This document shows, piece by piece, positions 1,068 to 26,572 of a stretch of 64,000 nucleotides of DNA. Below the pieces are notes generated by a model that was not told the DNA's origin, did no database searches, and saw only the letters and a program-made list of their open reading frames with translations. The stretch is taken from assembly GCA_964016885.1 (NCBI GenBank), contig OZ024765.1, forward strand, positions 14,198,001 through 14,262,000. Reading direction: 5' to 3'. Position 1 is the stretch's first letter. The number at the start of each line of letters is the position of its first letter. A program made the translations under genes and the position numbers. This DNA comes from Eledone cirrhosa (lineage: Eukaryota).

Positions 1068-1200
1068 AAAGTAGGTTTATAAATATTAATTTTTTCTTAT
1101 GTTCTTGTATCTGTTTCGTTGGCCTAATGGTAGGTGTTAGAGACTATGTAGACACTGATGTGGTGTTCAATCTCAGTCCGAATCTGTACTATATATTTTT
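1068..1200 (+). ncRNA. Putative Pol III two-hairpin module 1 (TATA + A box + B box + T-run)
   Basis: AAAGTAGGTTTATAAATATTAATTTT (TATAAATA at 1078-1085), A box TGGCCTAATGG 1120-1130, B-box-like GTTCAATC 1165-1172, T5 at 1196-1200; GTTTC/GAGAC stem around the A box. Confidence 0.55.
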
Positions 1201-1226
1201 AAATTTAAATTTTTCTCTAGCAAAGT

Positions 1227-1365
1227 AAAAAATGAAATTATTATCTATAGACTTTGACTGAGATCGAAACCCCGAGCAGGTTCTCCACCGTCTCTAATAC
1301 CTACCATTAGGCCACGGAGACAGATATAAAAACAGTGTGAAAATTAATATTTATAAAGTTACTTT
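1227..1365 (-). ncRNA. Putative Pol III two-hairpin module 2
   Basis: Minus strand reads aaagtaactttataaatattaatttt..ctgtctccgTGGCCTAATGGtaggtattagagacggtggaga..ggtTTCGATCtcagtc, then T6. CTGTCTC/GAGACGG stem. Confidence 0.55.
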
Positions 1366-1386
1366 TTTATTTTTGTTTTATACTAT

Positions 1387-1518
1387 AAAAAATATAATAC
1401 GACACATTGCCAGTGATTGAACCCCGGACCTGGACCTCCACCGGCTCTTATACTTACCACTAGGCTAAAGGGACGGTTACAGAAACTTACTGAAAATTGA
1501 TATTTATAAACCTACTTT
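1387..1518 (-). ncRNA. Putative Pol III two-hairpin module 3
   Basis: Minus strand reads aaagtaggtttataaatatcaatttt..accgtccctttAGCCTAGTGGtaag..gagccggtggagg..GGTTCAATC, then T6. Stems weaker than in other copies. Confidence 0.5.
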
Positions 1519-1523
1519 TTCAT

Positions 1524-1698
1524 TACTAGAAAAAACCGGAAGTGGAGATAATTGAAAAACATCTTCTTTTTCTTCCTCTGATTTTTTTTTATCCAAAATT
1601 TGGATTTAAGTCAGAGACGAGTTATCGTTCGTGGCAAAAATCAGAGGAAGAAAAAGAAAAAGTTTTTCAATTTTCTCCACTTCCGGTTTTTTCTAGTA
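1524..1698. repeat. 175-bp palindrome / MITE-like fold-back with ~65-bp arms (present in all five units)
   Basis: tactagaaaaaaccggaagtggaga..cttcctctgattttt versus aaaaatcagaggaag..tctccacttccggttttttctagta; TA at both ends. Absent from the diverged copy. Confidence 0.85.
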
Positions 1699-22031: not shown

Positions 22032-22222
22032 CTTTTGCAGGACTAGAACCGTTTCATTCGGAAGAAATCAAGGGCTTTCCAGTTGATTTTTTCCCAATGA
22101 AACAGTTCTATTCCTTCAGAAGCCATTTCTATATTAAATATTATTTATTAAGTATTTATACTCTACTATGTAGTGAGTACCTTACTTACTGTGGTTACAG
22201 CAGATGGATCCCGGGATAAACA
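22029..22222 (+). mobile_element. Penelope-like terminal fragment with a 5' fold-back hairpin (22029-22125)
   Basis: ~43-bp imperfect stem with an 11-nt loop, then actctact..gagtac similar to the family at 29530/43000/43470/48055; bounded by microsatellites. Confidence 0.45.
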
Positions 22223-22932
22223 TATATACATATACGGGTGCACAGGTGCACGTTGCCCTCAAGTTACACTAAGGATTCCCCCCGATTTTCCGTCACACAT
22301 CACTACATCTTCGAGTAAATGTTGATTAGTAAACAAACCGTGTATCTCACATGTAAGAGGGAAAGCCATAGTAAGTGTTAAGGATAAGAGACGTGTGAAT
22401 ATAATAATGATAATAGTGTTAAAATTATTAATAGTAGTAGTTGTAATGATAAAGTGAGTGGGACAACATTATTATAAATACTTATGTACACACAAGATTA
22501 CACAGGTACACATTCGTACACGTATCTACACAAGTACGTACATAAACGTTTATAAATAAAAGACGAAGCTGATAAAAAGAACATATATTACCGTATCGCG
22601 TTTAGAACGATACATTTGACGTTGAGTTCTTGAACCTGATCCCATCATCGTTTGCTCATACGATTATTGCATACACAACCCAAGTTTAAAGAGCTGCCTG
22701 TTTAGAAACAATATTTCCAGGCCGCCATCTACTCACTAAGGTATGGCAGTTGAAGGACATCACTGGAGATCAGCTGGTCGTTGGATGAAATAAACCTAAA
22801 GAGATAAGAATAAAAGTCATGATATATCTTCTGAAAACTCCAGAAAAGGAAAGACCATGTCGACTCGTTTGTGGTATTAATAAGACTGAGAAAGCCATGA
22901 ACGCCACCACGTCAATTAAGCTTCGAAAAAAG

Positions 22933-23312
22933 AAAGTAGGTTTATATATATTAATTTTCAGTATATTTTTGTACCCGTCTCGTTGACCTATTGGTAGATG
23001 TTAGAGACGATCGAGGTCTGGGGTTCAACCTTAGCCAGGATCTATATAAAATAAGGGGGTTTTACTAATTCTTTTCAGCTTTTTAAAGATGTAAAAAAGT
23101 AGACAAAATTTGTTTTTTTATTTTACCATAGATGTTTTTACGTTTGCATTGAAAAAAGCTGAAACAAATTAGTACCCCCCCCCCTTATTTTATATAGATC
23201 CTGGCCAAGATCATAGCCCAGACCAGGATCTCCACCGTCTCTCGTAGCTCCCACTAGGCTACAGAGACGGCTTCAAAATAATATTAAAAATTAATATTTA
23301 TAAACTTACTTT
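22933..23312. ncRNA. Convergent pair of diverged modules (+ 22933-23043, - 23196-23312) inside a long fold-back
   Basis: Same upstream motif on both. The minus copy folds GCCGTCTCT/AGAGACGGT and AGATCCTGGTC/GGCCAGGATCT but has a mutated B box. Confidence 0.55.
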
Positions 23313-24359
23313 TTATTTTGGAAGATTAATTGAAGTTCATGCCTTTCTTATTGTTGCTGTTATTAGAAAGGGTCGACTTTGTCTTTCATAATTCAGGGTC
23401 TTTCATGAAGTAACTATTCATTTTATTTGTTAACGCCTTAGTATTGATTTGAACCTACAATGACTTCGTCTGCAATAATGTTCACTAATTTCAAATCTGT
23501 CTTACGTAAATCCTGTGTGCAACTTACAAATAAATTGTTAAATGTCACTTTTATATATTAACAAATGAAAGATTGGAACCTACAGTGACCTGCAGTAATG
23601 TCTCGTAACTCCAACTAGATTGCGCTAAGCTTATATATTTCTTTCGTCCGAACAACATAATGGTTTCGATCCCAGTTCGCTACTGGTACAAGAAAATCTA
23701 TATCCCTAGCTAAATATTGAACCCCTAACGACATTTTATGTTACTTAATACCAATAATCCCATTACACACTGCACATCTAAGCTCTGAACACACATTTAT
23801 ATTTATAACTCAATTTCTAATTTTTAAATATTACACCACCTTTGTGTTCTCGGTGTAAATCCTGTCGATATTAATTTAATTATAATTTTAGAGCAGAAAA
23901 ATAGAAATACCAGTCATTTTATGGGTTCAATTTAATCGATCGGCTTCTCGTCAATCACTTGACATTTGCCAAACAAAGACACACAAACAATATATATATA
24001 TATATATATATATATTTCATACGACAAATTTGAAATAAATTATGTGTTTGCAATAAAATAAAAAAAAAGAATTATTGAAAGCAAGAAATTACAATTATTT
24101 AGTAATAATATTTTTATTGTTTGTTTTCACTGCATTAACTGCCGAGTGTGACTTATTTTTCTTACTATTTTCTACTGTAAATGGCGGCTGAGACGTTATT
24201 GGATTATTACTAAGGTTTACTGGATGATGGCGTTTCCTTATTGCATTATTTTACAAACAGTGGACATCGGAAAATTCTTCTACATACCTGGGATAAATGT
24301 AAGGAGCATTGTTATGTTTTACATAGTACAATGGTCATCTCTTCTTATATTTACATTTT

Positions 24360-25560
24360 CTTCTCCATTTCATTATTTTAAAATATTTCTATCATGTCAC
24401 TCGTTTGATTAATCTCCTCCAAAGTTGTAATTCTAAGTGTTTGTCCTTGGTCTAGTGAACTAATGTTGATATTTTCAAGTCTTGACATTTATATCGAATA
24501 GTGTCCTAATATTTAAATAGTCTTTATATTTTTATCCTGTCTCCCCTAAGATTTATCTCCTCTAAATTTACAAAAGTTTCTTATCTTCCTTCACAAGACA
24601 GATCCCTAAATAATTCTAGTGTCTTCTGTTTTCTTCTTCTCTGGGTTGCTTCAAGAGCCTCACCGTTCTGTCGGATGTCGGTTGACCATGGCCCAAAACA
24701 ATATTCTCAATGGTAGCACACATATTCATCTTGAGTTTTAGATTTTTCAGCATTTAGCTAGGAAAAATAATTGTTTCTACTTTAGGCACAAGGCCAGCAA
24801 ATACCCAGTTCATTACTGGTACTTTATTTTATCGACCCCGTAAGGATGAAAGGCAAAGTCAACCTCAATGTTTTATTATTTCTATTATCCGTCTCGCTGT
24901 TTTGCTTCAACATGGTTAGCCATCTTTCAATTCATATTCACAATTCTTCTGTGAGGGTATAAGAAGCTCGTTTTTTGCTCAACATTCGATACCAAAACAT
25001 GCTTCCTTTATATAACTTCGTTGTCCGAATATAATAATTAAAGTATATATACAAGCCATGTATATATATATAGCTGCTTATTAACTCTTTCCCGAAACAT
25101 TTATTTCTTCAAAATAAGGTAAGACATATCCGTAAAAATATTATAAGGTGTCTCAATAATTATTCCATTTCAATCAATTTCTCATTTCAGTTTTCTTTAG
25201 AAATGTCGGCGTTGAAGATACATACATTAATAATAATTAGCTTGTCTCAAAATTGTTCGTATTGTTTCCATGTTTAGTGTCACAAACTATCGTTAATTCA
25301 AGATTTTGCTCTAATGTAATAAATGTTACTTTTAAAAGACTGAAGCTCTCAATTTTTTCTTTCTCTTGTATATTGATATCTAAACAATGACAAATGCATG
25401 TGTTATGTTGTAGGAGAAAAAAATGACGGCCTTCTTCCCTCGCTATAGAAGGCTAACTGACAATGTCGTTCGTAGGAGTGACAAGTACTCGACAACAGTG
25501 ATCATCACCTCTTACTGCCTTTTATATACGATGTTAACTGGCAAGACTTGCCAAGTATGG
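24360..25560 (-). mobile_element. Same CR1/L2-type LINE remnant in the diverged unit
   Basis: Colinear with 4190-5080; reads TLRITTLEEINQTSDMIEIF and LEQNLELTIVCDTK. Confidence 0.6.
24767..24866 (-). mobile_element. 5'-truncated SINE inserted only in the diverged unit
   Basis: Matches the SINE 3' half at 28950, 45540, 48480 and 57110. The empty site is visible in the tandem units (catttagctaggcaaagg/aatgttttatt). Confidence 0.9.
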
Positions 25561-26123
25561 ATACTCTCTCTCCTTATCAATATTGTCCGAGTCCGAGGAC
25601 ATTTTCTCCCTGGTTAAGGAGTGAGATAAAATATTAGGGATCAATCTCTAGCAATAATTTAATTAAATTATATTTAACCAAAACTGTTATGTTGTGGTTG
25701 TTGTTATATTTTATAGTCGTGGTTTCAATATTTATCAGGGGTTGTAGAATTAGTTTTATCTAATTATTATCAAACAAAAATGATGTATATATTGTCGTTG
25801 TACGTTGAAATCACATATATAGATTTATATACACACCAAGGATGGAGGGAAGATAGAATTGAAAACCATTATTGCTGAGCACAGATCAAATCTAATACAC
25901 ACATATATATATATATATAATAATAATCAGGTATGACTATTGATGAATGTCCCTGCAGATCATCAGGCTGTAGGATGAAATCAACCCTAGAGAAATGATA
26001 AATTATATGAAGGTGTATTTTATGAAAGCTCGAGAAGAATAAAACTGAAAGTGAACCATTTTGAAGTATTAATATCATTGGGAATGCGATAAACGCCACT
26101 ACATCAATTTTTCTATAGAATAG

Positions 26124-26572
26124 AAAGTAGGTTTATAAATATTAATTTTGATAGTATTTTTGTATCAGTCTCTATGGCCGTAGTGTAGGTGTTGAGACAG
26201 TAGAGGGGCTGGTCTGGGGTTCAATCTCAGTCAGGAATCCGTCGAGAAATTTAATTTTTTTAAATTTTTCATAAAATGAAAAACAATAGCTGTTGCACTA
26301 ATCTGAGATCGAACCTCAGACCAAGATCTCCGCCACCTATCATACTTACCACTAGTCCACGGAGACGGTTATAAAAACTCACTGAAAATTAATATTTATA
26401 AACCTACTTTTTCAATTTTTTATAAAAACAAAATATTTGTACAAGGTTTTTAGTGTAGAATCTGACAGAGATTGAACCCATAATCAGTATCATCACTGTC
26501 TCTAGTATGTACCACTAGGCCACTGAAACGATTACGAAATCGTAGTGAAAATTAATATTTATAAAACTACAT
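26124..26572. ncRNA. Three diverged modules (+ 26124-26240, - 26295-26408, - 26455-26572)
   Basis: Each has the TTTATAAATATTAATTTT upstream motif, an A-box-like segment and GGTTCRATC. The middle copy has a perfect TCTGAG-GTTCGAT-CTCAGA hairpin. Confidence 0.55.

Follow-up and report, generated by a model that had tools for sequence, protein, structure and literature searches.

A multicopy, likely tRNA-derived family of putative RNA polymerase III genes in the genome of Eledone cirrhosa

A stretch of 64,000 bp from Eledone cirrhosa (assembly GCA_964016885.1, contig OZ024765.1, positions 14,198,001 to 14,262,000; hereafter 'the window', which lies on C26 in our contig numbering) contains 25 short modules in which a TATA-like element precedes the A and B boxes of a tRNA-like RNA polymerase III (Pol III) promoter. 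Judged from the sequence, these modules are very probably transcribed by Pol III into an RNA of 90–120 nt. On balance, we favour the reading that they form a multicopy and likely tRNA-derived Pol III gene whose RNA is kept by the host for abundant output, the 5' hairpin probably being its sole conserved feature. Compared with the initial proposal, their structure proves weaker and their mobility greater. No earlier description of the family was found in the literature, Repbase and Dfam lying outside the comparison.

A profile hidden Markov model (HMM) made from nine divergent versions placed all 25 modules where the initial annotation had put them, with four in each of five tandem units, two at 22933/23312 and three at 26124/26410/26573. 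A covariance-model scan of the window recovered 25 as well, partly by construction. Loci fetched from a search of the 3.0 Gb genome yielded 213 full modules, which fall into 45 lineages at 88% identity.

Promoter layout and indirect evidence of transcription

The distance from the TATA-like element to the A box is 43 nt in 36/45 lineages, and that from the A to the B box is likewise 43 nt in 36/45. The TATA-like element lies ~30 nt before the predicted start, and the A box (TRGCNNARYNNG) and B box (GTTCRANNC) stand at a tRNA-like distance. In an alignment of 42 lineages (three of the 45 were dropped because of internal deletions or lost upstream sequence), the core B-box columns are kept in 38–42, with T60 in all 42, C62 in 40 and a purine at position 63 in 41. 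A run of at least four T, the presumptive terminator, occurs at +65 to +129 in 38/45 lineages (median +96), while a single lineage of the 45 has such a run before +60. These features, together with the promoter-less copies described below that start at +1, lend indirect support to the proposal that the module is a Pol III unit of tRNA-like type preceded by a TATA. The layout suggested at the outset is borne out, with some corrections. The sequence CAGGATCT is intact only in the copies at 22933 and 23312, the upstream element of module 4 has at least six mismatches and lacks TTTATAAA, and the first run of at least four T in the window modules begins at +89 to +118 and not directly 3' of the second stem.

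Three indirect lines of evidence point to transcription. First, we fetched 90 loci among the first 100 places listed for a body motif, with this motif alone as the criterion; 75 keep upstream DNA and 15 do not. Four of these 15 start at the predicted +1 G (two by aligner, two by eye) and two at +2, while none of the 90 starts between −28 and +1 (P = 2e-5). Several promoter-less copies break off near +87 to +104, or continue into tails resembling long interspersed nuclear elements (LINEs) or into heads of short interspersed nuclear elements (SINEs); no convincing target duplication and no common tail was found among them. Second, a concatemer on C3 consists of five head-to-tail 106-nt units of the module-4 type, in which the second T of the terminator is joined to the +1 G. 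Its first unit starts at +2, its last is cut by (TA)n and gene flanks are absent, an arrangement best explained by reverse transcription of the RNA. Third, when transposon-borne copies are compared in 33 disjoint pairs, 101/384 A/T sites (26%) differ between −11 and −4, as compared with 276/4961 (5.6%) in flanks, with several alleles per site and in both modules of the transposon pair. In Thornlow et al. (PMC6130373), divergence is strongest 10–15 bases upstream of active mature tRNAs; because the tRNA-equivalent start of the module is +7, its hot spot is in register with this. Discrete RNA ends, as initially expected, thus find indirect support in copies starting at +1 and a concatemer running from +1 to the T-run, while the predicted length of ~90–120 nt replaces the 75–95 nt first suggested. 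Three sequencing runs that match the modules are DNA-like contigs from one sample; they attest high copy number only and have no bearing on expression. A promoter-less module-4 copy at C2:57.9 Mb (L195) extends ~90 nt beyond the terminator and is flanked by (TA)n tracts.

Among 21 disjoint pairs drawn from the 42 lineages, we counted differences at 47/567 sites of the upstream 27-mer, at 64/167 of the 8-nt spacer that follows, at 76/441 of the boxes and at 283/1084 of the remaining body. Since loci had partly been picked by their upstream motif, positional paralogs with their own flanks were used too. In eight such pairs the 27-mer differs at 14/215 sites (6.5%) as compared with 12–17% in the flanks (P = 8e-4), and in window-only pairs at 5/80 as compared with 344/2039 (P = 0.009). 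In transposon copies it decays like the flank (5.2 vs 5.6%). Clustered copies show constraint on the 27-bp upstream element.

The U6 genes of the same genome have a TATA at ~−30, an offset shared with the modules, and 15/16 upstream sequences of the signal recognition particle (SRP) RNA genes, which are paralogs, score best at −39/−40 with the module upstream profile, mostly weakly. By eye, no element resembling the proximal sequence element (PSE) of U6 and tRNA-Sec genes was seen upstream of the modules; the U6 and tRNA-Sec genes themselves have in common a TATGCWAAT-type element near −75 (upstream of L071–L074 and L123–L124), a candidate PSE of the lineage. The U6 genes form a 1.8-kb tandem array on C19. 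An SRP RNA tandem array lies at C12:42.10–42.13 Mb (L271–L280), where an upstream TAGG...AATTTT resembles the module upstream element.

The RNA body

Under a two-hairpin model, 74.9% of positions are paired as compared with 73.6% in shuffles (23/500), and double changes are not in excess. Across the family hairpin 1 is 83% and hairpin 2 68% paired, the latter count being weakened by nine rows of one subfamily in which the aligner left a −1/+1 shift between the boxes unopened (seen by eye). A weak second stem, initially noted for copies 1–3, is thus a trait of the whole family. On the transcribed strand of hairpin 1, C-to-T departures (44/168) outnumber G-to-A departures (13/210), while hairpin 2 is unbiased; in disjoint pairs the corresponding C/T and G/A differences are 20/84 and 9/105 (P = 0.005). 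We judged the direction of change from column majorities and from disjoint pairs. In 67 transposon copies, CpG decay of the bodies shows no such asymmetry (36 vs 36). The suggestion that pairing is kept through G-U gains support from hairpin 1 alone, where the change is wobble-biased. Hairpin 1 is probably under selection, the same not being established for hairpin 2, and the RNA body outside hairpin 1 is not constrained. One subfamily (L032–L035, L037, L039, L041, L043–L060) has a duplicated B-box hairpin and often lies near contig ends; the −1/+1 shift in this L032–L060-type subfamily preserves the A–B spacing.

Other folds were rejected. A cloverleaf leaves 51% of cells paired, with 20% in the anticodon arm and 47% in the T arm; ARAGORN found no tRNA in the window and Rfam no match at gathering score, in agreement with the original view that no cloverleaf is formed. 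A three-way junction was discarded because its closing 5'–3' stem is 61% paired and not conserved. At a loose E-value, the 150 Rfam matches listed out of 226 are of microsatellite or inverted-repeat type, one of them falling on a near-perfect module pair.

The bias in hairpin 1 bears on a reading in which the RNA is a by-product and the sites bound by TFIIIB and TFIIIC are selected as chromatin boundaries or organisers, functions that tRNA genes can serve. It would account for an upstream element that is the best-kept part of the module (89% vs 63% pairwise identity), for the fixed spacing, for a body that diverges faster than its flanks and for the position of many clusters near contig ends. 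Nevertheless, a wobble-biased change confined to the transcribed strand suggests selection on the RNA, and we regard this explanation as rather unlikely.

Several results weigh against a host-kept RNA gene, the reading we prefer. RNAalifold gave no consensus fold for the 42 lineages and covariation equals that of shuffles (13 vs 12.4 pairs; 232/500), so that the conserved two-hairpin RNA initially proposed is not supported. Folds with z ≤ −2 occur in only 5 of 35 lineages (10 of the 45 were dropped from this test as gapped), and the hairpin-1 bias drops to P = 0.054 once transposon-type lineages are excluded. In the paralog test, A and B boxes are no slower than flanks (20% and 12.5%) and the body outside the boxes outpaces them (103/319, 32%), BLAST flank rates leaving out gaps; disjoint pairs give no significant C/R contrast for the B box (P = 0.13). 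Part of the loci had been picked by the exact upstream motif, which inflates the apparent conservation of the upstream element. The C3 concatemer could derive from a DNA circle cut between two T-runs, and the decoy role put forward below is argued wholly by analogy.

Multiplication of the modules and their carriage by a transposon

A genome-wide search with an upstream 25-mer gives 670 exact matches (reversed control, 0), clustered on many contigs and often close to contig ends; a 19-nt body motif gives 1,051 (control, 53), strewn along C1 and C2 among the 100 matches listed. Being counts of exact patterns, these copy numbers are lower bounds. Two metagenome scans contained no relatives of the module. 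The usual arrangement is a convergent pair of modules ~290–630 bp apart, with divergent neighbours at times.

The five tandem units of the window have a period of 4577–4583 bp and are ~99% identical; related arrays, 91–97% identical, lie elsewhere on C26 and on C18, C20 and C22 (Table 1). The inverted repeat between modules 3 and 4 is a mark of fold-back duplication. Module genes thus multiply by fold-back, tandem and segmental duplication, and the retention of upstream flanks in 75/90 loci bears out the earlier view that spread is mainly at the DNA level. Module 6 has the best two-hairpin fold (z −5.3), yet its B box is altered.

Table 1. Modules and associated repeats in the window
Feature	Position	Strand	Remarks
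Tandem array of 4.58-kb unit, four modules per unit	1..21443		starts before window; fifth unit broken off at 21443
Module 1	1068..1197	+	upstream element 1068–1094; predicted +1 at 1107; A box from 1120; predicted RNA ~91 nt
Module 2	1231..1365	-	convergent with module 1; predicted +1 at 1327; predicted RNA ~97 nt
Module 3	1391..1518	-	predicted +1 at 1480; predicted RNA ~90 nt; best fold without hairpin 1
Inverted repeat between divergent modules 3 and 4	1524..1698		63-nt arms, 95% complementary
Module 4	1695..1830	+	upstream element diverged; predicted +1 at 1733; close variant is the five-unit concatemer on C3
Unit 2, modules 1–4	5645..6408		profile HMM, covariance model
Unit 3, modules 1–4	10228..10991		profile HMM, covariance model
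Unit 4, modules 1–4	14808..15568		profile HMM, covariance model
Unit 5, modules 1–4	19385..20144		profile HMM, covariance model
Module 5	22933..23061	+	6-nt deletion between A and B boxes; predicted +1 at 22971
Module 6	23156..23312	-	convergent with module 5; predicted +1 at 23274; predicted RNA ~119 nt
Old diverged copy of most of tandem unit	23335..26575		67–80% identical; paralogous to array on C15
Module 7	26124..26256	+	predicted +1 at 26162
Module 8	26282..26410	-	convergent with module 7; predicted +1 at 26372
Module 9	26432..26573	-	predicted +1 at 26535

Eight open frames of the tandem unit have no Pfam match above cut-off. A 270-bp segment is repeated inside the unit (window 1889–2178, 3831–4101 and 24012–24297; 65–67% alike), with short open frames that have no Pfam match. 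Elsewhere in the window are a LINE 3' end (27300–27930), RTE-like by its appearance as we take it, and three tRNA-derived SINE heads (30164, 46042 and 54966).

Most of the first 30 body-motif loci have ~900 bp in common, including a convergent module pair. The ends of this carrier are 14-nt inverted repeats starting CAGTGGCG, of which the two exact end motifs occur 172 and 97 times (controls, 0). It is flanked by an exact 8-bp duplication in L255, a 907-bp copy with the pair, and by one with a single mismatch in L252 and L256; the duplication is not clear in L227, and many other copies lie in (TA)n, where it is unreadable. An 8-bp target duplication is a mark of the hAT group, and the carrier is a non-autonomous hAT-type transposon with a convergent module pair as cargo. 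Among the open frames listed, no hAT transposase partner was recognised; the carrier may already have a name in repeat databases. Six elements have both ends and lack the module pair, for which capture and later loss both fit. The upstream flank of L151 contains a fragment that ends in a related CAGTGGCG-type repeat and reads, we presume, like a hAT transposase C terminus. A 1.68-kb tandem array at C1:441.19 Mb (L128–L130) combines a tRNA-Ser-like gene with part of the module-bearing transposon. Modules beside a tRNA-Sec gene and in a tRNA-Ser array are transposon-borne, and such proximity is therefore no argument for function.

A dispersed element with target duplications had been named initially as an outcome that would speak against an RNA gene family. 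One module pair does lie in such a transposon, but the window copies are not pieces of it and look older: their convergent pair aligns to the carrier only across the modules, at ~69%, no carrier ends lie near them, and carrier copies are ~6% from their own consensus while module lineages differ by 25–40%. The same observations bear on the view that the modules are selfish cargo, which evolved inside DNA transposons, where the element would profit from an active Pol III pair, the window clusters being relics of older elements expanded by tandem duplication. That most dispersed copies sit in the hAT-type element, with upstream DNA, terminal repeats and the 8-bp duplication, agrees with this view, as does the alignment of the window pair with the element pair across both modules; LTR (long terminal repeat) elements with tRNA-like sequences are also known (PMC10886601). 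The lack of element ends near the window modules, the six pair-less elements, the low divergence of the element copies relative to that of the lineages and a promoter that is still constrained in static paralogs all argue the other way, and we consider selfish cargo unlikely.

The 15 loci without upstream DNA could instead suggest that the modules have no host role and act as source genes for a SINE that is weak or only nascent, a reading to which the promoter-less copies fused to LINE-like tails and a SINE head of the genome, with the same A box and A–B spacing as the module (34/64 ungapped identities), lend some weight. Membership of the SINE class was rejected, since 75/90 loci keep upstream DNA and the tails of the remainder differ. 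Against a source-gene role, only 15/90 loci are of this kind, neither a common tail nor a convincing target duplication was found, the vault, U6 and tRNA-Sec genes of the genome leave similar copies, and retroposition leaves the promoter constraint in many clusters unexplained; we hold this to be very unlikely.

Origin, known relatives in kind and possible role

By sequence comparison, the module is likely tRNA-derived. Its ungapped alignment with a tRNA-Arg(CCG) gene of the genome spans the leader through the 3' end (34/73, P = 4e-4), and the two share AGGTTTATA at an equal offset upstream. The module differs in being without an anticodon arm or canonical T arm, and beyond the boxes the two are not significantly alike (18/52, P = 0.15), so this tRNA is not proven as the parent. 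The dominant SINE of the genome matches the module only in the boxes (z 1.5). An SRP/7SL origin was rejected (z 1.4 vs the genome's own SRP RNA), as were origins from U6 and tRNA-Sec, whose RNAs in this genome the module body does not resemble. A dispersed tRNA-like gene with identical flanks and a varying anticodon region (L088, L090–L098) is probably carried by another mobile element.

Vault RNA, with which the modules had been compared, resembles them in its length of ~90 nt, Pol III transcription, upstream TATA-like sequence and clustered genes. Identity with it was ruled out: there is no RF00006 match, the body scores z −1.3, the closing 5'–3' stem is 61% paired, and the vault genes of the genome form a separate cluster on C3. 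This cluster (C3:221.18–221.25 Mb, L102–L109) contains 14/16 matches above the Rfam cut-off, with copies elsewhere; of six papers listed on vault RNA and molluscs, none concerns such genes by its title.

Closest in kind are rodent 4.5SI and 4.5SH RNAs and primate snaR. As described in PMC10137851, 4.5SI is a lineage-restricted, tRNA-derived RNA of 98 nt with A and B boxes, a TATA-like box at −31/−24, kinship to a SINE head and three genes in mouse and rat. The module family shares the boxes, the SINE-head kinship and, likely, the derivation; it differs in its many hundreds of modules, in the strong divergence among its lineages, and in occurring as convergent pairs and on a transposon, and the likeness drawn here is one of layout. 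The same source gives 4.5SH as a 94-nt, 7SL/B1-derived RNA with hundreds of genes, each in a 4–5-kb tandem repeat, and relays that it counters exonization of antisense B1 (PMC10137851). Promoter type and repeat length recall the 4.58-kb unit of the window, but 4.5SH has one gene per unit, the module body is not SRP-like (z 1.4), and the module matches its related SINE mostly in the boxes. The snaR genes are likewise fast-evolving Pol III genes that form tandem arrays and have been spread by segmental duplication, and their ancestor CAS has an A box at +11–22 and a B box at +57–65; unlike the modules they are Alu-derived and highly structured, with no TATA box given in the part of the source available (PMC3045588). 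Helenus and Ajax are also non-autonomous mobile elements carrying tRNA-like sequence plus flanks, but are LTR retroelements with direct repeats (PMC10886601), whereas the module carrier ends in inverted repeats and is flanked by an 8-bp duplication, and modules occur without it too.

In the mechanism that we propose for a host-kept gene, TFIIIC would bind the A and B boxes (+14 and +59), while the 27-bp upstream element, with its TATA near −30, would position TFIIIB. Transcription would start at a G ~12 nt before the A box and stop in the first T-run. The 5' strand would pair with the former anticodon region, so that the RNA would no longer be tRNA-folded and would escape tRNA processing. Both the output and hairpin 1 would be under host selection. 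If 4.5SI, 4.5SH and snaR are a guide, the RNA would most likely serve, in a dosage-dependent manner, as a decoy or adaptor for proteins binding to SINE- or tRNA-like RNA.

A broader proposal, plausible to us though short of probable, is that the modules represent an unnamed class of Pol III RNA, abundant and lineage-wide, probably in cephalopods, which would have arisen from a tRNA gene plus a TATA flank, converged on the 4.5S layout and role, and been spread by a DNA transposon in transcription-competent pairs, seeding hundreds of active Pol III sites genome-wide. To our knowledge, lineage-specific Pol III RNAs of such a kind are known mainly from mammals and viruses; the present family would be an invertebrate example, comprising hundreds of genes, having 4.6-kb tandem units that recall 4.5SH and betraying its RNA ends through processed copies of itself. 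An RNA of 90–120 nt would escape standard poly(A) and microRNA libraries. The transposon, with a Pol III pair that is apparently still transcribed, offers a natural experiment in which dozens of neutral copies map the initiation hot spot base by base.

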